Assembly: GCA_965222375.1 (NCBI GenBank)
Contig: CBDCTZ010000009.1
Span: 1-64,000, forward strand
Direction: 5' to 3'
DNA: 64,000 bases
Origin: Polyangiaceae bacterium
GTDB taxonomy: Bacteria > Myxococcota_A > Polyangia > Polyangiales > Polyangiaceae
Each line of letters starts with the position of its first letter. Within the stretch, counting starts at the first letter, position 1. Below the pieces are notes generated by a model, which saw nothing but the letters and a program-made list of their open reading frames with translations, made no database searches and was not told the DNA's origin. Positions 11,860 through 29,029 of the stretch are shown here, piece after piece. The translations under genes and the position numbers were made by a program.

Positions 11860-13613
11860 GACCCCCCGTCGAACTGCGTGCCACCGCCGCGCACGATGGG
11901 AACCGGAATCAACTCCGCCACCACATCGGGCGTCCCCTCGATGCTCCCAAAAACTCGCCCGTAGTCATCCCACGCCGTAGCTAGCGCGCCACCTGGCCAT
12001 AGCGGCGTCGCCGCCAGCGCGACTCGCCGTTGGTCATCCGCGCGATGCGCGCTCTGGCGCGGCAGCGGGACCTCCGGCTTCGAGAGATCCAGCGTGATCC
12101 CAGTGCCCATGGTCCAAGTGATCTCCTTGAGCCACAGCTCTTCGGCATTCGGGTTGGCCGTCACCGCTTCCGAGCGCCAAGCGAGGAACACCCGCGCGCC
12201 AACCCGCGCCAATGCGGGCTCACTCTGCCCCAGGGTCGGATCTGTGGAGTACGGCGCAATCAGCGGATCGATCGCAAACGAAGTCGCCGTTCCCGGCGTC
12301 GCCGTATCCAGCACCGCGCCCCTGAGCGCCGGCGTCCCAAAGGCGCCGCCGCCTTCTGTGAACACCAGCAACAAGCGCGACCCATCAATCGCCACCAGCG
12401 CCGGCTTGTCCAAACTCGGGCCAGGGGAGGCGACCGTCACCGTGAAGCTCCCGCTCCCCGCCTTCGCCTCGATGGTCTCCGTTGTCCCCGTCCGCGCACG
12501 CCAAGCTGCCGCAAAGCTCCCACCAAACGCCGCCAGCGCCACCTGCGACTCATGCGCCTTCGTCCCCGCAAGCACCTGCTCGCTCCCCTGCGGCGTGCCA
12601 CCCGAAGACAGCGCCCGCAACTTGATGTCGAGCCCCGCCGTCGCAATCTTCGACTCATCCACCCAAGCCGCCACCAGCCCACTGCCCGTCCAAATCAGAT
12701 CCACATCCCGCTGATTGAAGCTCGTGGTGGCGTTGAGTCGCTGTTTCGGCCCAAGCGCCCCGGCCGTGCCTACCGTGCGCAGCGCAATCCCCCGCCCATC
12801 CCCATCGGCGCCATTGTCACTCCAAGCCACCACAAACCCAGCGCTCCCAATCCCCGCCACCACCGGATGCGCATTCTCCGTCGTGCTCGCATCGTTCGCG
12901 ACCGTCGCGATGGTGCCCGGAACTCCGTCCTCGTCGAACACCCGCACGCCCACCAACGGCCCTGCATGGGTCTCCACAAACGCGACACCGAAGCCCGCAG
13001 CCCCCGCCCCCACCGGATGCCGCCCCTCCCCAAGCCGCCTCGTCACCTTAGGAACAACGCCACCATCCGACCCCGGCCCCGGCGCGACGAGCACGTCTTG
13101 CACCACACACTGCGCATTGCACGAGTCCGGCGGCGTCACGTCCGTGCCGTCATCACACTCCTCCGTCACCGGATCGCGAACACCGTCGCCGCAGAATTGC
13201 GATACGGGTCCATCCAGCGGGCCATCGGTTGCCGAGTCACCCGCCGCGCCGTCGCTAACCGCTCCATCACCACCTGAACCTGCGCCCCCATCCGGCGCCG
13301 CGTCGCCGCCATCACTTCCGCTGCCGCCCTGCCCACTATCGGTCGGCGAACCCGCTGCCCCCCCAGCTCCGCCCAGCCCAGCGCCACCGTCGGCCCCAGC
13401 TGCACCGCCGGCGCCCGCCGCCGCGACTGTCGTCGTTTCGTCGCTGTTGTCACCACAGGCAGCAGCCGTAGCGAGCGATGCGAGGGCGGCGCCGACCGCC
13501 AGGAGACCGCGCCCCGGCCTCCTCTTCAGCCGACCCGCTAGCATCGACGCCAGGACACCGACTCGTTCGCACGAAGCCCGCGAGCTCTCTCGATTGTGAA
13601 TGCGTGAGCGCAT
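11856..13613 (-). CDS. Lipoprotein with Gly-rich linker, myxobacterial Cys-rich repeat and repeat-rich (propeller-like) C-terminus
   Basis: Lipobox-like TAAAC-GDNS and FCGDGVRDPVTEECDDG...CNAQC. Start 13613 follows GGGAG, just downstream of the upstream stop at 13630. Confidence 0.75.
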   Translation of the reverse strand: MRSRIHNRESSRASCERVGVLASMLAGRLKRRPGRGLLAVGAALASLATAAACGDNSDETTTVAAAGAGGAAGADGGAGLGGAGGAAGSPTDSGQGGSGSDGGDAAPDGGAGSGGDGAVSDGAAGDSATDGPLDGPVSQFCGDGVRDPVTEECDDGTDVTPPDSCNAQCVVQDVLVAPGPGSDGGVVPKVTRRLGEGRHPVGAGAAGFGVAFVETHAGPLVGVRVFDEDGVPGTIATVANDASTTENAHPVVAGIGSAGFVVAWSDNGADGDGRGIALRTVGTAGALGPKQRLNATTSFNQRDVDLIWTGSGLVAAWVDESKIATAGLDIKLRALSSGGTPQGSEQVLAGTKAHESQVALAAFGGSFAAAWRARTGTTETIEAKAGSGSFTVTVASPGPSLDKPALVAIDGSRLLLVFTEGGGAFGTPALRGAVLDTATPGTATSFAIDPLIAPYSTDPTLGQSEPALARVGARVFLAWRSEAVTANPNAEELWLKEITWTMGTGITLDLSKPEVPLPRQSAHRADDQRRVALAATPLWPGGALATAWDDYGRVFGSIEGTPDVVAELIPVPIVRGGGTQFDGGS

Positions 13614-13629
13614 CACGAATCTCCCGAGC

Positions 13630-16600
13630 TCACTGGCCAGCTTGCGGTTGGATGGGCGACCAATACCGGTAACGCAGCACCAGCTGGATGTCCTCGAGTC
13701 GGTTCCAGCGAAGCTGCGGTGAATCCCACACCCGGAACCGGTAGCTCCCATCCAACGGGCGCCCTCGATACTCTGGCTTTTCCACGCCTGCCTGCGACAG
13801 TAGCGCCTGGTCCGCCGAGCCCACCGGCAGCGTGATGTACCGTTCGGCAGCAAGTGCTTTGCCGTGGTTGATCGCGGCCGAGCCGAAGTTGAAGATCTGC
13901 TTGTCCTTCGGCCCCGTCCAGCTCAGCACGCCAACCTGGAAGGCGTCGTGGTTCAAGGTGTAGTCCACGTAGGCCTTGCTGAAACACGATTGGGTCGGAT
14001 TGTTGCTGCAGTCATAGACCCCGGTTCCGACCAGGTTCACCGCAACCGTGATGTGGCGGAAGTTGAAGTTGTCCGCGGCCAGCAATCCGGTGAGCCGCGA
14101 GTCCCCGACTCCCAGGTTGCCCGTATCGAATACCAATGGCGACACCAGCTCGTAGAAGCACTGGTTGTTCGTGTCGCAGGCGTAGCGGAAGGCTCCTTGC
14201 ACATCTTCTTTGGTCAGCCCGCCACAGTTGGAAGATGCGATCAGCCGAGTGGACTTGACGTCGAAGTACGGCCCGGGCAGCGACGCCGGAGGTGCCTCTT
14301 CCAGCTGCACGCTGGCGATGAGCACGCTGCCTAGCTCGTTCGGAAACGCCGCTGCGGCAAAGACGACTTTGTAGTCCCCGCTTTGGCTCGCGGTCAGGCC
14401 GACTGCGCGCCGCTCACTCCAAGCCGACGGAGCTGGTCCTGCATCCGGCGGATTCGGATCCGGCACGAAGGGCGCTCCGGTGAAGGAGCCCGCCACACTG
14501 CCATCCGGCGCCAGAACCGTGACGGAGTATTGAACGCCCGTGCTCGCCGCCGGCAGCAGCGTGCCGTCCGGAGCTCGGGCTTGGTCCCACCACGACAGTA
14601 CGTAGCTCGCGCCAGCCGTCAGCGTCACCGTCTGCGCAACGGTGCGCGGCAGGTCGATGGTTGGGATGCCACCTTCCGGTCCGCTACCGCCATCAGCGCC
14701 GGCATCTACTCCGCCTGGCGCAGCGAAGTCGTGGAGCCAGCTGAAGTCGTTGCCCGCCGTCTCTGGTGGCGTGCCTGCGGCCGGCAGGGTCTGCGGAACT
14801 GCCAGGGCGCTGCTGCGGTCGACTCGCAGGCAGGTCGTTCCGGTCGCATCGCATGGAGTCAGCTCCCAGCCGCGCGTGGTCGGGGTTCCGCCCACGTCGA
14901 TGAAGTCGTATCCTGCCAGATCGCTGGAGTAGTAGAGCATGTTTGGCGCCTCCACTGTGCATGCTTGCGGCGGGCCGAGCAGATCGTCGCGCAGTGAAAG
15001 CACCGTCGTGTCATCGCCATCGTGCGACGGGTACTCGATGTTGTAGTACTCGACGAAGCCCTCGAGCTTCGTCACGTAGTCGCCGATGTATTGGTCGGCG
15101 AATTCAGCGATGATGGCCTGCTCGCCCGCGTCCGTGGGTGTTCCCCCGTCCGGGCCCACGAAGGTCGACAGCTTCGTGTAGTCGACTCCAGTCAGGCTGC
15201 ACACATCGTCTGCCCACTCGGCGGGTGCGTCGATGGGACCGATCGGTTGCGTCAAACCCGCCAAGCGCACGCCCAGACGTTGCTCGATCGCAAGCCGCGC
15301 CACGTAGGACAGATACTTGGCTTCCTTCAGCGCCTGCTGGTACCGGAGGTTCGTGGCGTCGTAGAGGCGCCGCTGAACCGTGTTCACCGGGAACGGCACC
15401 TTCTGTCCGTCGATCTCCACGTAGTCCGCGCCCGAGCCTTTCGCGGCCTCGTACTTCGCTTTGCGCTCGTTCTGACGGATCTGCTCCACGATCGCAAGCA
15501 CCGTTGACGCCGAAGCACGAATGTCTCCGAGCGCGTTCTGAAGATCGGTGTACAGCGGCCCAGAGACGAGCTGAAGTTGGTTGAGCGCAGCGGACACGGC
15601 GTTGCCCTCAGAGGCTGCCGCCAGCTTCTCGCCCTCCTTCACCTTTTCGAGCTGCGCCGCCCCTGTGGCGACTCCGATCCCGGCGTTGGTGAGCCCGGCG
15701 ATGGTGCCGCCACCCAAGCTCCCCACGCTGAACCCACCGATGGCGCCGGAGGCGCTCTGCAGCATCGACGCATGGATGCTTAGCCGCTGCATCGCGAAGG
15801 CCACCATTGCTTGTTTCTGGCTGATCTTGGCGCCTTGAATGCTGATCTGAGCGCTCTTGATGGCCTCATGCAGCTGCGCGAGGTTGCCGGACACCCGATT
15901 CCACCCGCCCGCAAGCCCTTCCAGGGAGCCTCGAAGCTCAAGCAGCTTGACGCCGTGGTCGCCCTTGAACGCCTCGCCGCCAACCTTCTTCTGGTTGAAT
16001 GCTTCCACCACTCGTCGCGGCAGCCCCTCGAGGTAGATATTGCTGGCTTGCCGCGACGCATCCTTCGACAATTGGTCGACCCAACGCGTGAACCCTTCCA
16101 GATCCGACAGCTTCGTGAGCTCCGGTCGACCGCTCACCGCGCCCAGCACACTGCCCGTTCCAATGTTGCACGCCAGCGCCATGGTCTGTGCGAGTTGGGA
16201 GGCAGCACCACAGGGGAAAGGCGGCGGGTACGAATTGACGAACAGCTCGACTCGGTTTTCCTTCGGGCAGCTGCGCGGCATCAGGCTCAATGTCGTGCGC
16301 TGGTAGGCCAGCGTGCGACATTCGTTGGGGTCGTTGCAGGGCGTTGCCTGCTGGCTGGGAGGCTTGCCCAGAATGTAGGGCACGTCCAGCACTTGTCCGT
16401 TGCTGACCGCGCAGCTTTGGGTCACCTCATGAATGCCAGGACTGCCGGCCGCGGATGGAATGCCGAACTTGCCGTACTTCTGATGCCGGCAGGCTAGCTG
16501 AGGGTAGGTATACCCAAGAAAACCGCTATCGGTCGTGTCCGCCGGGAACGTGACCTGACCAGGCAAACCGATTACTATCTGGTAGTCGATCTGCCCTGCC

Positions 16601-19600
16601 CCTGTCCCCTCGATCTGGGGGAATGGCGGCAGAACGCTCCAGTTCGCTGGCGTCGTGCCAACAGAGGCATCGGTCCTCTGGTTGACGACCAGATCTCGAA
16701 ATACCGAATCGTACACGTCTTCGGAAACCCACCGCAGGGCCAAAATGTCGTGTCCTACCGTGGGAGACTTGCAGATTTCTCCCCAGTCTTTCCCAGCACG
16801 CAATGCCGTCAACGCACCAACGGCGTCAAAGTGTGCTGCCGTCGCGGTACCCGGCGCTGCACCGAACTGGCGTGTGCCCCCGGCCGGATCGCCGCAGGAG
16901 ATGCCGTGGAGGTTCCCCAGCGCGCCGGACAGCCAGGTCGCGATGTCCGGCACACCAAACCCGGTTCGGCTCCGGTTTTCTGCGGGGATGCGCAGGTAGG
17001 GCCCGGTGCCATACTTCGCTGACAACTCGACCAACCAGGTTGGGATCCCAGCATTCTGTGGCCATGTCATCCCCGGTGGGATGAACGCAGCCGTTCCAAC
17101 TGCCTCCCGCTCCTCTTCCGGCACGCCGGTGGGCAACTCGAAATTCACGAAAAATCCCGGGCCGTACACCGTGAACAAAGACGCGCGCTGGCCCGACGGA
17201 CCGAAGTTCGATGCGGGGAGTTGAACATCAAACAATCCCTGTTCAATGCTTCCAGACAGGGCGCCCAGGTTCCACACCGCGCCTTGAACGCGCCAGAGGA
17301 TCGCGTTCAGCTCGTCATCCACGTTTCCGTCCGGCCCACCTCCTAGCTGCGTCCCCGGCGGCGTTCTGCGGAAAAGCCGGTCATAGAGCTTCGCATCGTC
17401 CTCGACCGGGCAGGTCTGCCCGGGCCGTCGACAGCCGGGCCAGGCTCCGGTGTCGGTCGAATTCATGATCGTCGTGAGGCTCAGCTCCAGCGCCCAGTAC
17501 GGGGTGAGGCTGGTGTCCACGTCCACCCGCACTTTGAGCCGCTTGGTAAGCTCAGTAAGAGCGGTCTTCGATATCCAAGGCTGAGCCGCGAAAGTCTGAA
17601 GGTTGTGGCCGGCAAAGCTCGTCGACAAGGAAGCGACGGCGTTGTTCACCTCGTCGCATTCCGATGCCCCAGTTGGCGCACCAGCCGGAACATATTCCGC
17701 GAGGTTCAAGCCCACGACGTCATCCGGGCCCAACGTGCTCAACGAGTTGCAAAGCTCACTCGCGTAGCTCGTCCCGCATCCAAGTTTGGAATGCAGGAAC
17801 GCCTCTTTGTCTGACTCGAAATCGAGCGGGTTTTGAGTAATGAAGACCAGTGGGACCTTGTCCTCGCCCAAACACGCCTCGAGCGCTTGGTCCTTGTTGG
17901 GCTTTTTCGCAGAAACCTGCCCCTTTTCGACCTTCACGTTGTCCAGGGCCGCGTAATCACCGCAGATTTGTGCTAGGTTCTCTCCTGCAGCTTCCCGGCG
18001 GAAGTCCTTCTGCAAGCCAAGCTCAATCAGCTCCTTTCCAAGACTGTCCGCACGTTCAGCGGCCTGGCGGGCAAGGCTGAGGTAATGGCGCCAGGAATTT
18101 TCGTACTCGTCGGAATCGCTCGTCAGCTCGTTCTCCAGTGGCACGAACAGGTTCTTCAGCACGCCCCCGATACAATAGGCTGGGCTCGCGCTCAGGGATT
18201 CGGGCCCCAAGTGGGTGTTGCCGATTTTGTTGAACCCGAAGATGTCGTTGAGGTGGCGCCGCTGCTTGTCGCTGACCACGATGTTCGTGCCGCCCGTTGG
18301 GTCGTCATTGATCAAGTCGGGTTGCCGCAGCGCGATCGAGCCGAGCACCTTGCCCTTGCCCGCCGGGCTGTCCGGGTCGTTCTTCAGGATCACGTAGACG
18401 AACTTCGTCGGTAGCGTCGTCGGTGACTCGCCCGGAAAATACGTCGGCGTGAATTGCCCACTCGTCGGGAAGCGCCATAGCCCAACCGTGCCGTCGTGGC
18501 CCGTATACAATCGCTCCGCGTCCGTGAGATCTGCGTTCAACGTGAAGCTGGGCGTCGTCAGCAGGTAGTCGTTGAGGTTGGCGGGGCAATTGTTACGCAG
18601 GCGCGCGGCACAATCAGCCACCCAGGGCTCGCCGTATGCCAAGATCAACTGGCCAGCCATGTCCGTGACGTTCGACACCGCAAAGTCCTTGGGCTGAAAC
18701 CCGAGGGTGTAGAAAACGACCTCTTCGATCCCTCCGACCGACATCGAGGGATCGCTCGTGGCCACGATTCGCCCTTCCCCGCTCCACAGCTGCGCCTCTG
18801 CGGCGGCCTTTTCGCTGGTGTCCAGCAGCTCGTCCATGACTTCGCCGGCTAGCCCAGTCGAAGCCCGCACGGATTCACGAAGAACCACCAGTCGCCGCGC
18901 CAGCGCCTGACCCAATGAGTAGGAATCCTGAAACGACGTGCGCACCGCCCAGTCGGCATTCAGCAGACCATTGGCCCCGAAGTATTCGTCGCACTGAATC
19001 GCATTCTGAATGCCAGCGACCCGCGACATCACGTCGATCTCCATGTCTTGTCGCGGAATCCCGTCCTTCAGCGCAACGCCATTGACCGAGCCGAGCTCTG
19101 GCGCGACGAAGGTATCTGGTACCAAGCCGCCGCCGGGCGCGACGACGCTGGTGACGGCGGGCGCGGTGTTCAACACCCGGTACTGCGTGAACGTGCGCGT
19201 CAGCGCGAAGTTCAGGTCTGCTTCGCTCAAATCGTCGAGCACAAACTGAACCGATCGATCCAGACCGATTTCGGCCACTTGCGGATCCGCTGGCAGCAGG
19301 CCGCTTGCCGCCGCCTCCTTGCCGACGAGCTGCGCTTTCACCGCGGCCCGCACGCTGGCGGTGTTCGCTAGTTGGCTCGTGGGAATCACGATGCCCGCCT
19401 TTTCCACGATCTGCGTGGCGAGTTCCTGCCCCTTGGTTCGGATCGCGATGTCTTCGATCCGAGCATCTCGATCGGCGCCGAATGCCTGCTCGAGCAGGTC
19501 TTCCGTCGCGACCGTGCCGCACTTCGGATCCGTCGTGTACCACTCCACCGATGCGACGGCCGGCGACAGCTCCCAGCGCCCCATCACGACCCGCAGCGCA

Positions 19601-20826
19601 TGCGCCAGCGTGTTGTACGGCCCGTTGTCGTTATTGCGGTCACCCCACGCGATTTGCGCACCCCGCAATGGATCCGTAGCCTTGGCCCGCCGCATCGCGG
19701 CCCCGGCCAAGTCGGCCTCGACGGACGTGTCGATCAGCTCGTCGAGCAGGCGGCTGGCGCTGCGCAGGATCTGGGTCTGGAACTTGAGCCGGTTGGTGGC
19801 CAGGTTGGGGACGGTGGTTGAGTCGATTTGCCTCTCGGGTGGGTCCTTGGGCGGGAAATACGGAGCCTCTTCCCCCGCGGGCTCGCCGAAGATCCACTCC
19901 GAGTTTGGTTCCGCAAAGCCGATGTAATCGTCTATCGCCTTCACGAACACCTTTGAGCAGGAGCCGTCTCCCGTCTCGGTGAACCTCGCTATCGGCCAGG
20001 TGTCGTTGACCGCCAGGGTCGCCAACATGTAGATGGCTAGATCTCTAAATATGAATCTGTCGCGATTCGCCTGGGGTTTCAGCGTCCACGGGCCCGGCGG
20101 AACGCCCGGCAGCGGCGCGGCATCCGCCACTTTCTCCCAGCGCACCGGCGCAATCGCTTGAGAAAGGGCGTTCAACTCAGCGGCGATGCAGAGCAGCGCC
20201 TCGTTTTGTTGCAGCTGCTCCGAGCAGGACTCGGGTCGGCGCTGGAAGATGCTCCACGCCGTGCCGCCTCCTGACAACGCGCTCCAAGGTGGCACCACTG
20301 CCTCGTTGAGCAAGAACGTGTCCGGAATACCACCCATCTCAGGCACCATCCCGCACTCGGCGGCTGCGCCGTACACCAGCGCCCAGCCGCTGGGCATGCT
20401 CAGGTCTTGCTCGACGTTGACGCCTCCATCGTCGCCCTCGATCAAGGCCTTTTGCTTGGAGCTCGGCGCCTTCGACTTCGACACCTTCTGGTCGCCCTTC
20501 GACACGCTCTTGCCTGGCTTGGCGGTTGGCAGGCCCATCCGTTTCGCGGGCGACGCTTTGCCGTCCGCTGACGCCCCGGCTTGCAGCACTGCGTCGGTAG
20601 CACTTCCGAAACTGATCTCTTTCACCGGTGGGAACTTGACCAGCTTTCGATTCGCGCCATCGCCGACGTAGACCTGGATCGCCCACTGGCTCAGCTCGTC
20701 CGGCGGCTCGCTCGCGCCGCCAGACTTCTTCGCCGTGTCGCCGTCACCACACGAGGCGACGGCGGCCATGAGCAGCAGAAGTGCAATTCGGATCCCGTTA
20801 GTCCAATTGACCAATTGCCTTCTCAT
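13630..20826 (-). CDS. Very large lipoprotein (about 2400 aa) with coiled-coil/hydrophobic hairpin region and a C-terminus resembling the TcA TcB-binding domain
   Basis: Lipobox AVASC. Long helical stretch flanking ASGAIGGFSVGSLGGGTIAGLTNAGIGVATG. Ends GRPLDGSYRFRVW...LEDIQLVLRYRY. Start after AGGAG. The TcA resemblance is inference. Confidence 0.65.
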   Translation of the reverse strand: MRRQLVNWTNGIRIALLLLMAAVASCGDGDTAKKSGGASEPPDELSQWAIQVYVGDGANRKLVKFPPVKEISFGSATDAVLQAGASADGKASPAKRMGLPTAKPGKSVSKGDQKVSKSKAPSSKQKALIEGDDGGVNVEQDLSMPSGWALVYGAAAECGMVPEMGGIPDTFLLNEAVVPPWSALSGGGTAWSIFQRRPESCSEQLQQNEALLCIAAELNALSQAIAPVRWEKVADAAPLPGVPPGPWTLKPQANRDRFIFRDLAIYMLATLAVNDTWPIARFTETGDGSCSKVFVKAIDDYIGFAEPNSEWIFGEPAGEEAPYFPPKDPPERQIDSTTVPNLATNRLKFQTQILRSASRLLDELIDTSVEADLAGAAMRRAKATDPLRGAQIAWGDRNNDNGPYNTLAHALRVVMGRWELSPAVASVEWYTTDPKCGTVATEDLLEQAFGADRDARIEDIAIRTKGQELATQIVEKAGIVIPTSQLANTASVRAAVKAQLVGKEAAASGLLPADPQVAEIGLDRSVQFVLDDLSEADLNFALTRTFTQYRVLNTAPAVTSVVAPGGGLVPDTFVAPELGSVNGVALKDGIPRQDMEIDVMSRVAGIQNAIQCDEYFGANGLLNADWAVRTSFQDSYSLGQALARRLVVLRESVRASTGLAGEVMDELLDTSEKAAAEAQLWSGEGRIVATSDPSMSVGGIEEVVFYTLGFQPKDFAVSNVTDMAGQLILAYGEPWVADCAARLRNNCPANLNDYLLTTPSFTLNADLTDAERLYTGHDGTVGLWRFPTSGQFTPTYFPGESPTTLPTKFVYVILKNDPDSPAGKGKVLGSIALRQPDLINDDPTGGTNIVVSDKQRRHLNDIFGFNKIGNTHLGPESLSASPAYCIGGVLKNLFVPLENELTSDSDEYENSWRHYLSLARQAAERADSLGKELIELGLQKDFRREAAGENLAQICGDYAALDNVKVEKGQVSAKKPNKDQALEACLGEDKVPLVFITQNPLDFESDKEAFLHSKLGCGTSYASELCNSLSTLGPDDVVGLNLAEYVPAGAPTGASECDEVNNAVASLSTSFAGHNLQTFAAQPWISKTALTELTKRLKVRVDVDTSLTPYWALELSLTTIMNSTDTGAWPGCRRPGQTCPVEDDAKLYDRLFRRTPPGTQLGGGPDGNVDDELNAILWRVQGAVWNLGALSGSIEQGLFDVQLPASNFGPSGQRASLFTVYGPGFFVNFELPTGVPEEEREAVGTAAFIPPGMTWPQNAGIPTWLVELSAKYGTGPYLRIPAENRSRTGFGVPDIATWLSGALGNLHGISCGDPAGGTRQFGAAPGTATAAHFDAVGALTALRAGKDWGEICKSPTVGHDILALRWVSEDVYDSVFRDLVVNQRTDASVGTTPANWSVLPPFPQIEGTGAGQIDYQIVIGLPGQVTFPADTTDSGFLGYTYPQLACRHQKYGKFGIPSAAGSPGIHEVTQSCAVSNGQVLDVPYILGKPPSQQATPCNDPNECRTLAYQRTTLSLMPRSCPKENRVELFVNSYPPPFPCGAASQLAQTMALACNIGTGSVLGAVSGRPELTKLSDLEGFTRWVDQLSKDASRQASNIYLEGLPRRVVEAFNQKKVGGEAFKGDHGVKLLELRGSLEGLAGGWNRVSGNLAQLHEAIKSAQISIQGAKISQKQAMVAFAMQRLSIHASMLQSASGAIGGFSVGSLGGGTIAGLTNAGIGVATGAAQLEKVKEGEKLAAASEGNAVSAALNQLQLVSGPLYTDLQNALGDIRASASTVLAIVEQIRQNERKAKYEAAKGSGADYVEIDGQKVPFPVNTVQRRLYDATNLRYQQALKEAKYLSYVARLAIEQRLGVRLAGLTQPIGPIDAPAEWADDVCSLTGVDYTKLSTFVGPDGGTPTDAGEQAIIAEFADQYIGDYVTKLEGFVEYYNIEYPSHDGDDTTVLSLRDDLLGPPQACTVEAPNMLYYSSDLAGYDFIDVGGTPTTRGWELTPCDATGTTCLRVDRSSALAVPQTLPAAGTPPETAGNDFSWLHDFAAPGGVDAGADGGSGPEGGIPTIDLPRTVAQTVTLTAGASYVLSWWDQARAPDGTLLPAASTGVQYSVTVLAPDGSVAGSFTGAPFVPDPNPPDAGPAPSAWSERRAVGLTASQSGDYKVVFAAAAFPNELGSVLIASVQLEEAPPASLPGPYFDVKSTRLIASSNCGGLTKEDVQGAFRYACDTNNQCFYELVSPLVFDTGNLGVGDSRLTGLLAADNFNFRHITVAVNLVGTGVYDCSNNPTQSCFSKAYVDYTLNHDAFQVGVLSWTGPKDKQIFNFGSAAINHGKALAAERYITLPVGSADQALLSQAGVEKPEYRGRPLDGSYRFRVWDSPQLRWNRLEDIQLVLRYRYWSPIQPQAGQ

Positions 20827-20837
20827 CTTCCCTCTCC

Positions 20838-21887
20838 TTACGAACAGCACCGGAATCCCGACCAGAGTTTCGGATCGCCCGACCCCGGGGAGCAGTACTC
20901 GCCCTTCACCACTGCGCAGCTCGAATGGTCAGACGAACAAGCGTTCAGCCACTCGCTCTGATTTCCCACCAGGTCGAAGACCTTGTCGAACGGCGCGGTC
21001 GTACCCCGACACCATGGATCGCTCATCACAGGCTTGATTGTCGTGGTGCCCGCAATGCAGATCAGCGTGTTGAGCAGATCACCGTACGGGAACTTCGTCG
21101 TGCCCCCCTGCGTGCACGCATGCATGTGTTGACTGATCTTTGGATCGTACGTGGGCGTGAGCGGGGGTATCGCAATCGACCCGCCCCCGATCTTTCCGCA
21201 CAACCGCTTGCCCGCCCAGGCGCAGAATGCCGTGGCGTCGCACCAATCGACCGCCACGGGGATGTTCCCCGTTCCACTGAACTTCTTGTCGAAGCTGGGG
21301 TTGTCCGCGGCGCACCAGCCGGTTTGCGTCGGCGGGTTCGTTTTCGCTTCGGCGGCGAACACGTCGTACTGCGCGTGGGTCACCTCGGTGCTGTCGATGC
21401 AGAACGTGCCCACGTCGACCATCGTTGGCCCTTTGCCTTGCGGACACCCCGCAACACCGCCGCTGCCACCGGATCCCGAAGCGCCACCAGCGCCCGCGCT
21501 TCCCGATGCACCGCTGCTACCCGAGCTGCCGCCGCTGCCCGACGAGCCACTCGCACCCCCACTGCCCGCACCCGCGCCAACTCCGCCGCTCGCGCCAACT
21601 CCGCCGCTGCCGCTAGCGCCCCCGGTCGCGCCACCACCGTCGTTGTTTGTTCCACCTGTGCCGCCGGAGCATGAACAAATGCCCCACGCCTTCCCATCGG
21701 GGTTACAGATCTGGACTGCCTCCGTTGCGCAGCCTGGGCTCAGGCATGCCTGGGTCGCGCCGGGGTCGCACACTCGGTCGCCCCCACCTTCCGAGTCATC
21801 TCCACCACAGTTTGTGAGCAGCGCCGTGCCCAGTAGGCACACCGCCCAGGTGATACGCCTCAGTGGTGATCGTGTTTTCTGGTTCAT
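20838..21887 (-). CDS. Lipoprotein with formylglycine-generating-enzyme (FGE-sulfatase/SUMF1)-like domain
   Basis: LLTNC lipobox, Gly/Ser linker, FCIDSTEVT...VDWCDATAFCAWAGKRLC...DLVGNQSEW...GFRCC. Confidence 0.85.
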   Translation of the reverse strand: MNQKTRSPLRRITWAVCLLGTALLTNCGGDDSEGGGDRVCDPGATQACLSPGCATEAVQICNPDGKAWGICSCSGGTGGTNNDGGGATGGASGSGGVGASGGVGAGAGSGGASGSSGSGGSSGSSGASGSAGAGGASGSGGSGGVAGCPQGKGPTMVDVGTFCIDSTEVTHAQYDVFAAEAKTNPPTQTGWCAADNPSFDKKFSGTGNIPVAVDWCDATAFCAWAGKRLCGKIGGGSIAIPPLTPTYDPKISQHMHACTQGGTTKFPYGDLLNTLICIAGTTTIKPVMSDPWCRGTTAPFDKVFDLVGNQSEWLNACSSDHSSCAVVKGEYCSPGSGDPKLWSGFRCCS

Positions 21888-21952
21888 CCCTGCGCCCTCA
21901 GTCTCCGTCCCCTTTGGCTTCCGACATTCACCCACGTGCAATACGTGGGTGC

Positions 21953-21968
21953 AGCACGTGTCGTGCCA
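21953..21968 (-). promoter_or_regulatory. sigma54 (-24/-12) promoter upstream of the toxin-associated operon
   Basis: Minus strand TGGCACGACACGTGCT, i.e. GG-N10-GC with a TGGCACG -24 box, about 65 nt before ATG 21887. Confidence 0.65.
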
Positions 21969-22226
21969 TCAACAAAAAGATGTGACCTTGTTGGTTCATC
22001 TGGATCCCGCTCTGTTATCGCCCGCTGACTGCCCCCCCAGTTCGCGCAGCCGCGGCAGAGGTACGATACGCGAACTGGTGCTTCGCTATCCACCGCAATC
22101 TGCCACACCACAGTTCTAAGGTGCGTGTGGGTGTAGGAATCGGAGCAATCAGAGTTATCTGACGCGCGCATTATGCGCCATCACGTATCGCCGCTGGCAC
22201 AAGTGGCACAAAGACCTGGCGTCGCG

Positions 22227-22245
22227 GATGTGTCGTTGACACATC
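22227..22245. promoter_or_regulatory. Perfect 8-3-8 palindrome, candidate transcription-factor site
   Basis: GATGTGTC-GTT-GACACATC. Confidence 0.5.
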
Positions 22246-22265
22246 TTGGCACCGCGGGTGTGTCC

Positions 22266-22302
22266 TTTCAAGAGTTGTGCAAGTCTTGCTCAACTCTTGA
22301 AA
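22266..22302. repeat. 37-bp AT-rich palindrome (18-bp arms, 1 mismatch, 1-nt centre)
   Basis: TTTCAAGAGTTGTGCAAG-T-CTTGCTCAACTCTTGAAA. Confidence 0.85.
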
Positions 22303-22718
22303 AATATGTTTTGAGTCAAGCACCTACGCGATGGGGTCTGGGCGCGCTTGCCTACTGCACGCCAAGGAGCGACGCGAAGAAACCAGCACCCGAACGACAA
22401 TGAAAGGCCCCACCCATGGCCGCAATTGTGACTGCTTGCCGTGGTTCTGCGCAATGTGCGTGCGTGTCGCACCCCGGCGTTCGCGCCCTCGAGCAAGCGA
22501 GGTTTTCCGGGTTCCGGACTTGACGGGAATCAATTGGATCGCATCGCAGACCGGGCCGTATTGACACTCAACCACCCTTTGCAGCTTGGTCAGCTTCACC
22601 GCTCCGTTGCTCGCCGCGGGGCGAGGCGGGAGTCGCGCCCCTGGACAACGCAGCGAAGCGACTCCCGTGAAGCCAGCTCGAGCGAGTCTTCTCCGCTCGA
22701 TCGCGGCGTTGGAGCGCG

Positions 22719-25073
22719 TCACTTCCGCTGACGAGCTCGCCGCTTGGTCTCGGTCCGCTCCGCTCGTAGCTCGCAGACACGTTTGGCGTGGGCGAGCTCG
22801 CCGGTGTCGGGATCGAAGTTCACCCGGGCTCGGTCCCCTCGAGCCTTGATCGCGGCTCGATCATAGGCCTCCGCCGCTTCCTCTTCGACGTCGAAGCTTC
22901 CAAGCCCCACGGTCCGATTGTTGATGCCGATCTGGGCAAACCACCTGCCACCCGACCGGTGCATCGATACCCCGCGATATTGGCTCGACATGGTGCGTTT
23001 CCGTTCGCACAGAGCCTCAGACTGAAGGGTTGCCGCATCTGCCGGCTTTAGCTTTCCTTTCCGGTACTTGAAGTTCAGCTCAGCGTCTTCGCCGAAGTAG
23101 AAGCAGGCTGCGCGATCGTAAGCGCGGGCAGCGGCTTTTTCGGTTTGCCACGAGCCCAGCGACAAGAACTCTCCTGAGAGCTGCATGAATGCCTTCCAGG
23201 GCCGCGAGCCTCCTCCGGACAGCAGCTTGCGGCGCCCGCCCTTGCCCCTGCTCTCGTGCCGAAACCCCTTGCGGCTGCCATGGCGATTGCTCCACGAAAC
23301 ACCGAAATATTCGCTGGTGTTGTGGCGCGTCTTGAATTGCTTGCGAGCCAGACGCTGCAGCTTCTGTGGAGATGCTGGCCCGAGCTTCGCGCTCACGCGC
23401 GGGAAGTTGAGTTCGGCAGGAAGGCCAAGATGCAGAGCGCCACGGTCCCGCGCGATTGCTGCATCTCGCCCGCTTTTCCAACGCCCCAAGAACACGTTGC
23501 GGCCGTTGCAGTTGATCGACGCCGCGAAGCGGTCGGTTCGCGGCTCGTAGAGGACGCCCACCCAGCGCATGGCCATCTCATCAAGGCGGCGGCGGCGCGC
23601 TTGCCGCGCCTTACGACTCGACACGCCACACCGCAGTCTGCCCAGTAGTTCCTCGCCTGTCTCTGGGTCGAAGTTCAAGCGCGCAGCGCGGCCCTGGATC
23701 TGAAGCGTCCGTCGGTCGAACTCACGGGCGGCTTCTTCCTCTGTTTCGAACGGTCCAATGTTCTGCCGTATGCCATCGATCGAGACCGAGCACGACCAGC
23801 TACTACCGGTGAAGACAACACCGCGGTATTTGCTTCGGGGATTTTCCAGACCCGCTTTTCGACACGCGAGTCGAGCTTCCGTCTTGAGGTCGTCCGGTGT
23901 CGCCGGTCCCCTTTTCTTGGCAGCCGCAGGCAGGTTCAGTGCCGCCTCTGGGTATCCTAACCACAGTGCTGCGCGGTCATGGGCGAGGGCTGCCGCTTCC
24001 TCACTTGGCCAGAGCCCGAGGCCTACCGAGCGCGGGGGGCTTGTCGAAGTGGCAATCATTGCTTGCCAGCGCGGGCCGTTTCGCAACACGCCGGCGTAAG
24101 AGCTGCCCCGCTGACCCCTCCTTGCGCGCTCGCGTTGCTCCAGCACAAAACGTTCGAGCTCATCGCTTGTTGTCGGCTCTGAGGTGCCCTTGGCCTCATG
24201 CCGGAGGGCGTGCTTCCGTTTCGCCCCAGGCTTCTTTCGCGTGGACCGCGCCGCTCGGAGTTCGCACACTCGCTTGGCGTTGGTGAAATCGCCTGTGTCC
24301 GGATCGAAATTTACCCGTGCACGGTCTCCAAACGCCTTGATCGCGGCTCGGTCGTACGCCCTCGCGGCGTCCTCTTCGACATCAAAACCTCCCAGAATCT
24401 GCGTTTGACCATCAACGGAGATGCCCGCCATCCAGCCGCCGCCGCTCGCTTTGAGCGAAACACCTCGATAACGACTCGTGGTCGCGCGTTTCACCGCGCC
24501 TAGGGCCTCGGATTGCAAGGTAGCTGCGTCCGCGGGACGCAACTCTCCTTCCTCGTAGTCAAAGTTGAGCTCGGCGCTTTCACCATTGTAGTACCTCGAA
24601 GCGCGGTCATAGGCGCGAGCTGCTGCTTCCTCCGTTTCCCATGAGCCAAGCTGCAAACGCTTGCCAGCACTCCGTAGCGCCGCATTCCAACGTCCCCGGC
24701 TGCTGCTTTTTCTTCCACTGGACTCTTGGGACCCGCGTTCAACCAGCCAAACACCGCGATAGCTGCTCGTTGTGCCATTTCTCGTCCTGAGCTTTTCGCG
24801 TGCAAGCTTCTTCAACACTTGCGGTGATGCCGGCCCGAGCTTCTTGCTCACCCGCGGATGGTTGAGCTTCAAGGCCAGAGCGAAATGCAGCGCCGCGCGG
24901 TCGCGAGCGATCGCCGCGTCACGCGCCTCCGTCCAACGTCCCAGGTAGACGCTACGGCCATTCACATGAACAGTCGCAGCGAATCGACCGGTCTGCCGAT
25001 CGTACCCGACACCGGTGTTACTGCTGTGACCATGGCTGCCGCGCGCTTTGCCCACGAGATCCTCCACAAACAC
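22719..25073 (-). CDS. Protein of eight tandem AP2 DNA-binding domains
   Basis: Eight units of the form S.YRGV...W.A.I...G....[15 protein letters not shown]......A.LNF. Units 1-3 resemble units 6-8. Confidence 0.88.
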
Positions 25074-25254
25074 CGGCTCACTTCGCGTCGGATGTTCGAA
25101 CCGTCAGAACCATCGATTCGTAGGATAGCGCAGCGCCAGCCGCGCGGGCCAGTGCGCCTCCCGCAGCGACCCGTCTCCTCAAGTGGCCCCACTGGAAGCG
25201 TGCGCTGCGCAGCAATGAAGAGGGGGGCCAGGCGTTACGCAGCCGTCAGAATGA

Positions 25255-26625
25255 CTACGCTTTGCGAGGCCGCGCCTTGCGGCGTCGTGTCTTGCTCCGC
25301 CGAGCGGGCTCACGAGTGGCCGGTACATCACTGGCGCGCTTGCCGCAGAGCTCTTCCCCGGTAGTGGGATGAAAGTTGAGGTAAGCGCGCTTGCCCAAGT
25401 GCCGCGAGGCTTGGGCATCGTACCAGCGAGCGGCGGACTCCTCGTCGTCGTGGACGGAGCTGTATCGCTGGCCTTGACGGTTGAAAGCCGCTTTCCAGGT
25501 TGAGCTGCCTGCATTGAAACGAACCCCGCGAAAGCGGCTGGAGGTTCGCGCTTTGGACGGCGCGTTTGCCTCGGCCACCAAAGTCGCCGCGTCGGCGGGG
25601 ACCAGCGCGGATGCCTGCTTCGGAAAATTCAGGCGAAGACGCTCCGGCGGAGCGTCGTAGTAGAACAGCACCGCCCGATCGCGAGCCTGTGCCGCGGCAC
25701 GCTGAGAGGGCCAGCTCCCCAGGTGTTTCGTGGTCGAGCGTCCACGTTCGGTCAGTACTAGCTGCGCCACCCACGGCCGCGTCCTCTCGGAAGCAAGCAG
25801 ACAGACGCCCTCATAGCGACTGCTAGTGCCTTGCTTGAAGGGCTTGCGCGCAATCCGTCGCGCCTCTGGCAACGAAAGCGCCGAGCCGGCCTCCTTCGGG
25901 AAGTTCAAGCGCGCATTTTTGCCGTTGCGCCACTTTTCTACGCGGTCGCGGATCAGCGCCGCTTGTTTCTCGTCGGCAAAGTGCCCGACGTGCCTGAACG
26001 TACCGTCTATACGCACCCTGACTGCCCAAAGCTCCTGGGCCGAGTCCCAGTAAACCCCCCAGAATGGGCTGCTGCCTCCTGTCAGCTCTTGGTGTCGAGC
26101 GTGGGCCAGCCGCCGGAGCTCGGCTACCGACGCGCCGCCCAGCTTCTTGGCTGCTCGTGGCAAGTTGAGCTGTACATCGTCGGCGCCGAAACCAAGCAGG
26201 GCTCGATCACGGGCAAGCGCCGCCTCACGCTCGGTCGGCCAGATCCCCAGTGCAAAGGTCTTTCCCTCGAGCGTCACCCGCGCACTGAACGCTCCCTCCC
26301 GGAAGCCCTCGGTTTGGCGGGTTACGCCTTCGTATCGGACTCTGCCGCTGGCACGCCGGTACTCGAGCCGCGCTAGCTTTCGCAGCTCGGCCTGCGAGGC
26401 GGGGCCCAACTTCTTCGCACGTTTCGGGAAGTTCAGCTCCCGTGAGGCCCCGAGGAACAGCACCATTCGGTCGTGGGCCAGCGCGGCGCCTTTCTCTGTG
26501 AGCCAAACGCCAGCATGGACTATCCGCTCGCCGACCCTGAACTTCGCCTGAAAGCTACCGCTGCGGCCACCGGAACGAACGCGCTGAACGCCGTTGTAGC
26601 GCGAGGTTTTGCGTCTGGCTGCCAC
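25255..26625 (-). CDS. Protein of five tandem AP2 DNA-binding domains
   Basis: SRYNGV, VRYEGV, SPFWGV, SRYEGV and SRFRGV units, each ending AA...D....LNF/L. Confidence 0.85.
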   Translation of the reverse strand: MAARRKTSRYNGVQRVRSGGRSGSFQAKFRVGERIVHAGVWLTEKGAALAHDRMVLFLGASRELNFPKRAKKLGPASQAELRKLARLEYRRASGRVRYEGVTRQTEGFREGAFSARVTLEGKTFALGIWPTEREAALARDRALLGFGADDVQLNLPRAAKKLGGASVAELRRLAHARHQELTGGSSPFWGVYWDSAQELWAVRVRIDGTFRHVGHFADEKQAALIRDRVEKWRNGKNARLNFPKEAGSALSLPEARRIARKPFKQGTSSRYEGVCLLASERTRPWVAQLVLTERGRSTTKHLGSWPSQRAAAQARDRAVLFYYDAPPERLRLNFPKQASALVPADAATLVAEANAPSKARTSSRFRGVRFNAGSSTWKAAFNRQGQRYSSVHDDEESAARWYDAQASRHLGKRAYLNFHPTTGEELCGKRASDVPATREPARRSKTRRRKARPRKA

Positions 26626-26874: not shown

Positions 26875-27771
26875 GTGGCACCGCGACGCAAGAGTACGCC
26901 GCACCGCTCCTGGACCCTCGCTGATCTGCGCAAAGCGGCCCAGGCGCATAAGGGCCGCTGCCTGAGCCGAGCATATGCGGGCCTAAACGAAGCCCACAAG
27001 TGGCGCTGCGCTAAGGGCCACGTGTTCGAGATGCGCGCCATCGCCGTCGTGAAATCGCGGGCGCAGAGCCCGCAGCAGGGCCGGCGGAAACGCGCTCGGC
27101 GCACCAGGCCAGCTCGCGCGGCGCCATCCGCCGACGCGGACCCAGCGCCAGGGCCAAGACCCGAGCTACCACCCGAAGCGGTTCCGCAGCCCGCGGTCCC
27201 CGCGACAGCGCGCACTGCAGACCCGCCCACACGCGGCCTGCTGACCACGCGTGAGGCCACCGCCTACTGCGGCTTCAAGAGCGATTCCGCTCTGCGAAAA
27301 GCGAAGCACGAGGGCCGAATTGTGGCCGCGGGCCGCCGTGGCGCCCGGGGCACGCTCATGTGGGAGACCCAGGAGCTCGACCGATTCCTGCGCGGCGATT
27401 CACCTGGTACGATCCCCTCGGATCGTCCGGGCGCGCCGCCATTTGGAGGCGTACATGGACAACTGGAAGAAGCGTTGGAAGAGCTGGATCAAGCCGACGA
27501 GGCTACCCGGCGTTTGGAAAAGAAAGGAAGGAGGTCATCTAGTGCGCGCCCGAGTCACCAACCCGACGACGGGGCGCATGGAGGAAATCCGGAAGGTGCT
27601 GCCCGAAGCCGATCAGGCAGCGGCGTTCAAGTGGCTGTCGGACGAGCGGGCACGCGTGCGGGCCGGCCTCGGCTCAGCTCAGCTAGTGAGGACGCGCTTC
27701 GGCGACTTCGCGATTTCCGTGTTGGAGCACAAGGTCCAGCAGGGACATCTGCGAAGCCAAAAAAGCGCTGA
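26875..27771 (+). CDS. Excisionase-like HTH protein with N-terminal partial zinc-ribbon module; tail overlaps the integrase
   Basis: GRCLSRAY...WRCAKGHVF and LLTTREATAYCGFKSDSALRKAKHEGRI...WETQELDRFL (HTH_17-like), directly upstream of the integrase. Confidence 0.6.
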   Translation: MAPRRKSTPHRSWTLADLRKAAQAHKGRCLSRAYAGLNEAHKWRCAKGHVFEMRAIAVVKSRAQSPQQGRRKRARRTRPARAAPSADADPAPGPRPELPPEAVPQPAVPATARTADPPTRGLLTTREATAYCGFKSDSALRKAKHEGRIVAAGRRGARGTLMWETQELDRFLRGDSPGTIPSDRPGAPPFGGVHGQLEEALEELDQADEATRRLEKKGRRSSSARPSHQPDDGAHGGNPEGAARSRSGSGVQVAVGRAGTRAGRPRLSSASEDALRRLRDFRVGAQGPAGTSAKPKKR

Positions 27772-28906
27772 ACGGTGGAAGTACACTCTGGAGCACTTGA
27801 TCGGCGGGACCGTTACCGCTGACGGGGCTCGCCATGTGCCCGGGTTCGGCGACTTCTTTGTCGATCAGATCCGACCCGAGCACGTGGAGCAGTGGCGTGC
27901 TGGGGTCCTGGAGTTGATCGCGTCGGGCCAGTATTCGCCCAACACGACCAACAGCTGGCTTTCGATCTTGCGTGTGATCGCGCGGGAGGCGAAGCGCCGG
28001 CACAAGCTCCGGGATCTGTTCACCGAGGGCGTGCCGGACTTCGACACGTCCGAGCACGTTACGTACACCGAGGAGGCGCCGAACTCGCTGACCAGCGAGC
28101 AAGTGCCGTTGTTCTTGACGAAGCTGCTGGAGCTGCATCCCCGGCACTACGCCATGAGCTATCTCGGGCTGGCCACCGGGCTTCGGCCGTCGTCGCTGCG
28201 TCCATTGCGCCGCTGTGGGGAGACTCCAGACGTCCAGTGGGAGAGCTGCCGCTTGTTCGTACGTCGCTCGCAGACGTCGGGCCAGCGGGTCTTGAACACC
28301 ACCAAGCAGAAGAAGCGCTACTGCATCGAACTGCCAAAGGAGGTCATGGAGGTGCTGCGCTGGCACACGGAAACTCAGCTCGTAACGCCTGAGCAGCAGG
28401 GATCTGAGCTGCTTTTTCCGTCCGTTACGGGCGGTTATCGCTCACCAACGGTGCTCAACAAGCCCTTCGCGGAAGTGTCCGAGGCGATTGGCCTGGGATA
28501 CTCCTTCACCCAAATCGGCATGCGGCGCACGTTCAATGACTTGGCCCGGACTGCCCAGGTCGAAGCCATCGTAACGCGCAGCATCTCGGGGCATCTGACC
28601 GAACGGATGCAGGACCACTACTCGACAGTGCAACCCGAGGAGCAGCGCGAGAGCATCGCGCGCGTCATCGACTTGATGACGGCTCGCCGGGCGAGGGAAG
28701 CGGCTGACTCGCAGTCCGAAAGTGGCGGGGCGACCGACGACCCGCCGCAACAGAACGGCGCGTCAGGTGGTACTCCAAGTGGTACTCCAGATGGCGCTAT
28801 CGACAGCGAAAACGGTACCCGTTCGGGGCCACCTGGAGTCCAAAGTGGTACTCCCGGTGGTACTCCACTGTCTTCAAGTGGTACTCCGAAGGGTCGCGTG
28901 GGGTAG
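27455..28906 (+). CDS. Tyrosine recombinase/phage-type integrase
   Basis: LATGLRPSSL (Arg), TTK (Lys), GMRRTF (Arg), ISGH...MQDHY (His, Tyr). GGAGG RBS before ATG 27455. Adjacent to the tRNA. Confidence 0.92.
   Translation: MDNWKKRWKSWIKPTRLPGVWKRKEGGHLVRARVTNPTTGRMEEIRKVLPEADQAAAFKWLSDERARVRAGLGSAQLVRTRFGDFAISVLEHKVQQGHLRSQKSAERWKYTLEHLIGGTVTADGARHVPGFGDFFVDQIRPEHVEQWRAGVLELIASGQYSPNTTNSWLSILRVIAREAKRRHKLRDLFTEGVPDFDTSEHVTYTEEAPNSLTSEQVPLFLTKLLELHPRHYAMSYLGLATGLRPSSLRPLRRCGETPDVQWESCRLFVRRSQTSGQRVLNTTKQKKRYCIELPKEVMEVLRWHTETQLVTPEQQGSELLFPSVTGGYRSPTVLNKPFAEVSEAIGLGYSFTQIGMRRTFNDLARTAQVEAIVTRSISGHLTERMQDHYSTVQPEEQRESIARVIDLMTARRAREAADSQSESGGATDDPPQQNGASGGTPSGTPDGAIDSENGTRSGPPGVQSGTPGGTPLSSSGTPKGRVG
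28767..28887 (+). repeat. Five direct copies of GTGGTACTCC, putative integrase arm-type binding sites
   Basis: Copies start at 28767, 28779, 28845, 28857 and 28878, about 60-180 bp from the tRNA 3' end. Confidence 0.8.
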
Positions 28907-28945
28907 TGCGCTTGTCTAACTACCGAACTTCACTTTGCTTATTAG

Positions 28946-29017
<72 letters not shown>

Positions 29018-29029
29018 GGAGAGCTGGGA

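Follow-up and report, generated by a model that had tools for sequence, protein, structure and literature searches.

Two adjacent genes for nuclease-free proteins built from arrays of AP2-fold units in a Polyangiaceae bacterium

Transcription factors of plants and Apicomplexa have the AP2 domain as their signature DNA-binding domain, and in bacteria it is mostly known as a single domain on homing nucleases or integrases. Bacterial AP2 domains have been described as many and diverse, some of them plant-like (PMC4501334), and for non-integrase bacterial AP2 proteins with plant- or alveolate-like architectures a role as specific transcription factors has been predicted (Iyer and Aravind 2012, cited in PMC4117751). 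No experimental work on bacterial or myxobacterial AP2 proteins, or on the zinc-ribbon family DUF4379, was found in full-text searches of the literature. In the plant factor WRINKLED1 (WRI1), a V-shaped two-helix linker is described as clamping two AP2 domains, the sheets of which occupy neighbouring major grooves in a DNA of 24 bp (PMC9401623). The stretch analysed here, referred to as the window, comprises the first 64,000 nucleotides of contig CBDCTZ010000009.1 (C9) of the Polyangiaceae bacterium assembly GCA_965222375.1. It was found to carry two adjacent genes, the products of which, P0001 and P0002, consist of eight and five AP2-fold units and contain no nuclease domain. The explanation that we favour, at about even chances, is that both bind DNA in an iterated form of the WRI1 mode and regulate the neighbouring cargo of the island on which they lie.

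With proteins of the plant AP2 subfamily (WRINKLED1, 7WQ5, and APETALA2-like proteins) P0001 and P0002 share the AP2-linker-AP2 arrangement with two linker helices and an NFDP-type ending. The plant proteins have two units, whereas the bacterial ones are longer arrays, far more basic, without activation regions and island-encoded, and their linker motifs are specific to their own family. The nuclease-free bacterial AP2 proteins of Iyer and Aravind (2012), in the terms in which PMC4117751 cites them, resemble the present pair in being without integrase or HNH domains, in their plant- or alveolate-like architecture and in being predicted regulators. HNH-AP2 homing endonucleases contain the same AP2 domain, phage examples scoring 52-65 bits on a profile hidden Markov model (HMM) of the unit built in this analysis, but they carry one AP2 unit behind the HNH domain, unlike the eight plus five units without nuclease seen here. 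Green-algal poly-AP2 proteins, which supplied the long matches in our searches, also have many units per chain (13 in a 1828-aa Cymbomonas protein, eight in Chlamydomonas sp. UWO 241, seven in Mesostigma), and mutual matches are strong, e.g. E = 2.8e-62 to P0002. The algal units, however, are recent copies that are still nearly identical to one another, and their linkers are long or of another kind, whereas each bacterial unit is old, distinct by its position and packed at about 80-90 residues. A functional analogy may be drawn with transcription activator-like (TAL) effectors and C2H2 zinc-finger arrays, in which tandem modules, each presumed to read a short piece of DNA, likewise combine a conserved scaffold with variable contact residues, although the fold is unrelated and the poly-AP2 units are not near-identical repeats.

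An earlier interpretation made from the letters alone (the sequence-only reading) had described two adjacent genes for nuclease-free arrays of eight and five AP2 domains, and both were confirmed as minus-strand open reading frames (ORFs) with exactly the boundaries that it assigned (Table 1); the database form of P0001 starts six codons later, at 25055, and has 778 aa. The count of 13 units was the same by three routes, namely anchors on the A..A.DRA helix motif, the unit HMM and the secondary structure of AlphaFold models. The linker motifs quoted in the sequence-only reading are all present. KKLGPAS-type linkers follow units 1, 4 and 6 of P0001 and units 1 and 2 of P0002, PADAATL precedes units 3 and 8 of P0001 and unit 5 of P0002, and NFDPxTGE or NFHPTTGE follows units 3, 5 and 8 of P0001 and unit 5 of P0002, in the last case as a hairpin cap (NFHPTTGE) placed directly after the unit. 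Because the cap motif occurs after units 3, 5 and 8, P0001 can be regarded as three capped sub-arrays (3+2+3) fused in one chain. The reported duplication of P0001 units 1-3 as units 6-8 also holds, with identities of the corresponding units (Table 1) above those of all other pairs (19-48%), and with DNA repeats at 22752-23160 and 24243-24651 that agree with it. Pfam AP2 (PF00847, gathering cut-off 33.3 bits) matched whole P0001 at 94.3 bits (E = 5.6e-27) in four stretches.

The absence of an HNH or other catalytic domain was upheld by Pfam and NCBIfam, which detected no nuclease domain in P0001 or P0002, by the models, which have no extra folded domain, and by the structural matches listed for the two proteins, none of which is a nuclease fold. 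Besides AP2 no further Pfam or NCBIfam family reached a significant level in either protein. The tyrosine recombinase domain PF00589 gave no match in P0001 or P0002, the integrase of the island being a separate gene, and PADLOC defence models matched neither the two proteins nor the DUF4379 protein or the neighbours.

Table 1 Features of the window around the AP2 gene pair and of related loci. Positions are those of the window unless a contig is named.
Feature	Position	Strand	Description
P0001 gene	22719..25073	-	784 aa, eight AP2-fold units, pI 10.5
P0001 unit 1	24855..25019	-	58% identity to unit 6
P0001 unit 2	24558..24767	-	basic loop inserted in sheet; 56% identity to unit 7
P0001 unit 3	24303..24476	-	Pfam AP2 31.2 bits; 69% identity to unit 8
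P0001 unit 4	23928..24104	-	motif anchor and model
P0001 unit 5	23667..23834	-	TEM1 AP2 match Z 10.4, residues 410-495
P0001 unit 6	23400..23570	-	58% identity to unit 1
P0001 unit 7	23067..23315	-	25-residue basic loop, low model confidence
P0001 unit 8	22812..22985	-	Pfam AP2 46.5 bits; AtERF1 match Z 8.7, rmsd 1.5 Å, 43% identity
P0002 gene	25255..26625	-	456 aa, five AP2-fold units, pI 11.3
P0002 unit 1	26425..26604	-	residues 8-67; TEM1 AP2 match Z 8.8 over residues 3-87
P0002 unit 2	26158..26340	-	residues 96-156; with unit 3 and linker superposes on WRI1-DNA, Z 14.2
P0002 unit 3	25897..26070	-	residues 186-243
P0002 unit 4	25621..25821	-	residues 269-335; three strands and helix in model
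P0002 unit 5	25369..25539	-	residues 363-419; most plant-like; AtERF1 Z 8.8, rmsd 1.7 Å, 34% identity
Spacer, P0001 to FGE-sulfatase/Tc-like operon	21942..22718		compared with C11 paralog
Candidate sigma-54-type promoter-like motif	21953..21968	-	TGGCACGACACGTGCT; directly before FGE-sulfatase/Tc-like operon
FGE-sulfatase-domain gene	20838..21941	-	first gene downstream of AP2 pair
Tc-like toxin cluster	4016..20850	-	downstream, same strand as AP2 pair
Gene for 2406-aa protein	13630-20850	-	no Pfam match
Gene for 688-aa protein	11856-13922	-	in Tc-like cluster
Gene for 2547-aa SpvB/TcdB_midN protein	4016-11659	-	TseH-like C-terminus
5' remnant of DUF4379 zinc-ribbon gene	26875..27053	+	divergent from AP2 pair; homology ends at 27053
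Tyrosine integrase gene	27455..28906	+	PF00589 27.9 bits, cut-off 27.1
tRNA-Gly(GCC)	28945..29017	-	3' end faces integrase
Tc-like loci of the genome	C9 179-200 kb, C9 394-414 kb, C11 596-620 kb, C13 31-36 kb, C14 1324-1343 kb		

The AlphaFold2 model of P0002, built with a 113-sequence family alignment, has a predicted local distance difference test score (pLDDT) of 90.9 and a predicted template modelling score (pTM) of 0.65, and shows five strand-strand-strand-helix units. The AlphaFold model of P0001, for which 36 sequences were used, has a pLDDT of 80.7 and shows eight units of three strands and a helix. Two-helix linkers are seen at three of the four junctions in the P0002 model (67-73/78-92, 156-162/167-182 and 335-340/346-360), and the hairpin after NF[DH]PxTGE caps P0002 and follows units 3 and 8 of P0001. 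Low confidence in P0001 is confined to the N-terminus, two linkers between sub-arrays and the basic loops of units 2 and 7, and the model as predicted has no room for a hidden domain.

The top Foldseek match of P0002 in the PDB was WRINKLED1 with double-stranded DNA (7wq5_A, E = 3.6e-7, target-normalised template modelling (TM) score 0.65). In VIA-align, model residues 88-247, i.e. units 2 and 3 with their linker, superposed on this complex with Z 14.2, a root-mean-square deviation (rmsd) of 2.5 Å over 149 aligned residues and 30% identity. Unit 3 matched the AP2 domain of TEM1 (7et5, Z 9.0, rmsd 2.4 Å, 74 aligned), unit 1 another entry of the same domain (7et4_A, Z 8.8, rmsd 3.2 Å, 76 aligned) and unit 5 AtERF1 with DNA (1gcc_A, Z 8.8, rmsd 1.7 Å, 59 aligned). 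Structural matches of P0001 were to the same families, TEM1 AP2 being matched across both proteins at Z 8.7-10.4; unit 4 of P0002 and several units of P0001 had no match of their own among the matches listed. The predicted model of P0002 thus contains the WRI1-type module, in which the two helices of a linker clamp a pair of AP2 domains, and the BLASTP alignment of P0002 to a plant APETALA2-like protein is colinear from one unit through the linker to the next. The repeats of both proteins accordingly match the AP2 fold in their predicted models, and the description of the helices as plant-like was borne out by fold and sequence matches to AtERF1, TEM1, WRI1 and APETALA2-like proteins; plant-like sequence and predicted fold together support the view of the two proteins as nuclease-free arrays of AP2 DNA-reading modules.

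An exhaustive HMMER search over 1.84 billion representatives returned 2701 matches at E <= 1e-3, 519 at 1e-10 and 121 clusters at 1e-30. By the unit HMM, most of the top matches consist of 3-8 closely packed units, with one unit for every 80-90 residues or so. An alignment of ten proteins (A1) is colinear over five units at 29-91% identity, with conserved linker and cap motifs, and throughout the family the distinct units remain orthologous position by position. A non-repeat stretch of at least 100 residues is missing in 141 of 159 examined matches. Seventeen proteins were scanned with Pfam (13 of the 18 that have such a stretch, the five left out looking eukaryotic, and four other long relatives), and no nuclease domain was found in them; N-terminal DUF4379 zinc-ribbon arrays occur in three, DUF433 in one and a chromo domain in one. 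Fusions of DUF4379 to the N-terminal side of a poly-AP2 array are seen in P0113, P0138, P0165 and a 691-aa protein of the metagenome locus L042, and viral contigs were matched only in genes with HNH and a single AP2 domain.

The few named sources of the family are Polyangiaceae or Myxococcales/Myxococcota genomes from metagenomes, and the nearest ESM Atlas cluster is mainly from Myxococcota. At E <= 1e-10 it was matched in 3 of the 401 genomes that were sampled from the phylum (the present genome counted), all three belonging to one taxonomic family. A single-protein query matched 7 of 41 relatives at E <= 1e-3; scans of genome contigs yielded no relative with a single protein and two loci with alignment A1. 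The bacterial poly-AP2 family is sizeable and widespread, and rare in reference genomes. To call it a strong candidate for an undescribed system, as the sequence-only reading did, was an overstatement, given the size of the family and the earlier prediction of nuclease-free bacterial AP2 proteins as transcription factors, as cited in PMC4117751.

Three poly-AP2 cassettes are present in the genome, one in the window and one each on contigs C11 and C13. The C11 cassette encodes a 448-aa paralog of P0002 (91% identity) and a P0001 paralog reduced to units 5-8, and the C13 cassette a 460-aa paralog (61% identity) and a one-unit remnant. The ratio of non-synonymous to synonymous substitution rates (dN/dS) between paralogs is 0.24-0.26, i.e. 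purifying selection. Between the C9 and C13 copies 58% of the strand positions of the units differ, against 24% of the helix positions. Across 113 relatives the G-V, W, LG, A..A.DR helix and LNFP positions and the linkers are kept, and the exposed strand residues are the least conserved. That the beta-sheet residues vary, as had been noted, thus holds both among relatives and between paralogs, where they are the fastest-changing class. Both proteins are strongly positive, with net charges of +58 (P0001) and +47 (P0002).

Some further details of the paralogs were recorded. Downstream of the poly-AP2 gene on C13 (locus L015, 9784-10257) lies a 157-aa ORF with an AP2 unit 70% identical to P0002 unit 1; as one good AP2 unit is followed by unrelated sequence, this ORF is a decayed second poly-AP2 gene. 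When 25335-27053 of the window is compared with C11, the P0002 proteins of C9 and C11 are identical over units 1-3, whereas units 4-5 contain 23 differences in 124 residues. The upstream DNA that the two copies share is 92.8% identical, the rest of the island being at 75-82%, which looks like a recent gene conversion or recombination between the C9 and C11 islands.

In the favoured explanation P0001 and P0002 would be cytoplasmic binders of double-stranded DNA made from an iterated plant AP2-subfamily module. Each unit would be a three-stranded sheet packed on a helix, and, as in WRINKLED1, linkers of two helices would hold most neighbours together. If the crystal structure of WRI1 with DNA is taken as the model, one sheet would be placed per major groove and successive units in successive grooves, and the footprint would then be about 50 bp for the five-unit protein and about 80 bp for the eight-unit protein. 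Sequence preference would come from the variable strand residues and contact with the backbone from the basic linkers and loops, and the pair would act as island-borne transcription factors for the FGE-sulfatase/Tc-like operon that follows directly on that strand.

It is chiefly the position of the pair that argues for regulation. Five Tc-like loci of the genome include an FGE-sulfatase gene. At three of them an OmpR-family response regulator is encoded directly upstream of the FGE-sulfatase gene on the same strand, and at the other two, the window and C11, the AP2 pair fills this slot, as would be expected of a non-orthologous replacement of the OmpR regulator. The argument, drawn from gene order, is circumstantial, and to that extent the proposed control of the toxin operon is supported. 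At least six Tc-like (SpvB/TcdB-type) loci were counted in all, five of them with FGE-sulfatase genes, with 72-94% protein identity to the window copy.

In the spacer between P0001 and the operon, positions 21947-22160 are about 90% conserved between C9 and C11, against 75-80% for the flanking coding DNA, and the 280 bp at 22160-22440 are an insert in the C9 copy only. Directly before the operon stands the motif TGGCACGACACGTGCT, a candidate sigma-54-type promoter that we take to be near-consensus. Its GG-N10-GC is kept in the C11 paralog and was not seen in the three response-regulator loci. The annotated TTG start of the FGE-sulfatase gene at 21941 is probably too far upstream. A scan of 21700-27500 found no sigma-70 promoter, and three terminator-like sites against 5.0 expected. 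The ORF at 22324-22722 (minus strand, 132 aa), directly downstream of P0001, is taken as non-coding, since it has no Pfam match and its sequence is not protein-like.

Several observations weigh against the favoured explanation. At the level of the domain, whole P0002 scored 20.0 bits on PF00847, under the cut-off, and of the 13 units scanned singly one passes, one reaches 31.2 bits, six lie at 13-18 bits and five are unmatched. The Pfam check was thus positive for P0001 as a whole and negative for P0002; as one unit alone passes, most units are recognised through fold and internal repeat and not through Pfam, and the membership of P0002 in AP2 rests on its fold and on homology to P0001-type proteins. 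The geometry between units is uncertain in P0001 (pTM 0.43), and the weak conservation of strand residues would equally suit loose, non-specific binding. As to regulation, the slot evidence comes from paralogous loci of one genome, in which the window and C11 copies are not independent, and the C13 cassette adjoins a type II secretion/pseudopilin operon and not a toxin operon. Homologs elsewhere have varied contexts (PAAR-like toxin operon, serine recombinase, kinases, DnaB-like helicase, ParA-like ATPase), DUF4379 being the sole partner conserved beside them. Sigma-54-type promoters need an AAA+ activator, a class to which the AP2 proteins do not belong, so that with the candidate promoter of the operon they would at most modulate its expression. 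Finally, no binding site was found, neither of the two proposed targets being supported.

The first of these targets is GTGGTACTCC, of which five exact copies lie at 28767-28887 with spacings of 12, 66, 12 and 21 bases. All five fall within the part of the integrase ORF that encodes its C-terminal tail; they are translated as S/G-G-T-P repeats and end 58 bases before the tRNA-Gly gene. Genome-wide 18 copies occur against about 24 expected, and none is near the C11 or C13 AP2 loci. The repeats were therefore rejected as AP2 targets, and they are more likely to be arm-type sites of the integrase or a coding repeat. The second proposed target, 22227-22302, includes a 37-bp palindrome (22266-22302) with the core GTTGTGCAAG-N-CTTGCTCAAC and belongs to the 280-bp insert without counterpart in C11. 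The core recurs at 32838-32860, about 120-145 bp upstream of a gene for an FHA-sigma-54 activator (31381-32715, minus strand), and on C14 near 1339821, in the spacer between response regulator and FGE-sulfatase gene of a Tc-like locus that has no AP2 genes; with up to four mismatches it is found at six loci genome-wide. This target also lacks support, as the insert is peculiar to C9 and the core recurs at an AP2-free locus. A two-fold symmetric site suits a dimeric regulator and would be unsuited to a tandem array of unlike units. Judged from its distribution, the palindrome core is a candidate operator common to toxin loci and the activator gene.

Of the other explanations, the one that survives best, while still unlikely, is that the proteins are architectural or coating proteins of mobile DNA, which would compact, silence or shield the island with little sequence preference. 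Their extreme basicity (pI 10.5 and 11.3) and the weakly conserved base-facing strand residues in 113 relatives would suit such a role, as would the varied and often mobile contexts of a family that is patchy in its distribution (3 of 401 phylum genomes). On the other hand, the unit orthology kept in alignment A1 and a dN/dS of about 0.25 suggest that each unit has a constrained job of its own, the closest structures are those of sequence-specific factors, and the number of copies per genome is low.

We regard as improbable that the proteins are the target-recognition part of a selfish or mobile module with DUF4379 arrays, split off from HNH-AP2 homing endonucleases; the AP2 array would then choose the site, and cleavage or recombination there would fall to a catalytic partner with its gene at another place. 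The fusions of DUF4379 to poly-AP2 (P0113, P0138, P0165 and the L042 protein), the DUF4379 neighbour in C11 and its remnant at 26875-27053 are in keeping with this, and so are the phage AP2 domains, found with the same query, that sit on HNH nucleases, and the rearranged, truncated and multi-copy state of the cassettes in their own genome. No nuclease or recombinase domain is present, however, in the 17 scanned members or beside most homologs, serine recombinase or integrase neighbours are occasional and not regular, and purifying selection persists in copies with no mobility gene nearby.

A somewhat poorer prospect still is that of an effector directed at eukaryotes, a mimic of algal or plant AP2 proteins that would be delivered into prey or host and reprogram it in the manner of TAL effectors. 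The best matches outside the bacterial family are indeed green-algal and plant AP2 proteins, the lysine/arginine-rich tails and the basic central linker could act as nuclear targeting signals, and the cassettes adjoin Tc-like clusters, a type II secretion-like operon and, at locus L045, a PAAR-like toxin operon of which the homolog is the last gene. But the N-termini show neither a signal peptide nor a known secretion tag, many bacterial DNA-binding proteins have basic tails, and what Tc machines deliver is the C-terminal part of TcC, one of their own components, and not separate proteins.

It is very unlikely that the proteins are accessory factors for the directionality of island excision and integration, acting through the AP2-like fold common to arm-binding domains of integrases. 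An integrase and a helix-turn-helix (HTH)-like ORF lie next door, and the arm-binding domain of lambda integrase is among the weak structural matches (Z 3.8). Yet the C11 and C13 cassettes have no integrase alongside, so that the suggested control of island excision was not sustained; a congener has the integrase module without AP2 genes, and the clustered GTGGTACTCC repeats are found only at the integrase end. Binding of structured RNA in place of DNA has an equally slim chance, for although the AP2-fold proteins of the Toxoplasma mitoribosome, which bind short rRNA pieces, are among the structural matches (Z 5.3-6.4) and P0002 unit 4 has weak matches to double-stranded RNA-binding domains, the DNA-bound plant AP2 matches are much stronger (Z 8.7-14.2) and the linker geometry fits the DNA complex.

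The island itself was compared with that of the congener. The integrase, tRNA and flank (27215-29594) are common to both, with 85.9% identity, and where the window has the AP2/Tc cargo the congener has unrelated DNA; no AP2 relative of significance was found in congeners. As the same integrase module there accompanies unrelated cargo, the AP2/Tc cargo is placed at a tRNA-Gly island hot spot. The description of the locus as an integrative element is supported by the integrase at tRNA-Gly and by the recurrence of the module, and is left incomplete in that no second attachment (att) copy of the tRNA-Gly 3' end was found in the genome, the window beginning at the contig start. A DUF4379 gene is intact at the C11 and C14 loci, and in C11 it is the divergent neighbour. 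In the window a chimeric ORF (26875-27771, plus strand) matches in its first 180 or so bases the start of the DUF4379 genes of C11 and C14 (748 and 868 aa), and an excisionase-like HTH stretch follows this remnant, homology to the integrase module of the congener beginning at 27215. Taken together, these features mark a recombination joint between cargo and integrase module.

If the favoured explanation is right, and each unit reads one groove, the sites would be 50-80 bp long, which is unusual for bacterial regulators, the arrays might serve as a scaffold for designed DNA readers, and the AP2 pair would be a candidate regulator of Tc-like toxin operons in a myxobacterium. The bacterial family repeats the plant tandem-AP2 module, two-helix linker included, up to eight times per chain, and is thereby a bacterial comparator for the origin of the AP2-subfamily double domain of plants. 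A tree of single units (170 units, 58 columns) was unresolved, 106 of its 164 branches being open. When unit-linker-unit modules were used, an unrooted tree with weak support placed the 34 modules of the green lineage, without exception, in one cluster together with 4 of the 68 bacterial modules (Shimodaira-Hasegawa-like approximate likelihood ratio test (SH-aLRT) 85), nested among more diverse bacterial modules; because this tree is weakly supported and unrooted, no direction of transfer is drawn. A bolder proposal, and a doubtful one, is that such proteins form a class of modular long-site DNA readers, with the WRI1 geometry iterated 5-8 times at one unit per groove, a specificity code of fast-changing strand residues and often DUF4379 arrays, that they would be the bacterial equivalent of TALE or zinc-finger arrays, and that this bacterial stock was the source or the recipient of the plant AP2/ANT/WRI1 tandem module.

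Other parts of the window contain repeated or unusual DNA. Positions 1-3680, with an HTH_3 gene at 1912-2568, are repeated at 77-90% identity at no fewer than eight places on C5, C9 and C13, some copies being in tandem 7.5-9.7 kb apart, which suggests a multi-copy element adjoining Tc-like genes. Positions 56961-59172 have three to four copies on contig C16 at 79-90% identity. On the minus strand, 33651-48564 is a run of five very large genes (775-1291 aa), one with an MrfA zinc-binding domain and one with a subtilase-like PADLOC match.

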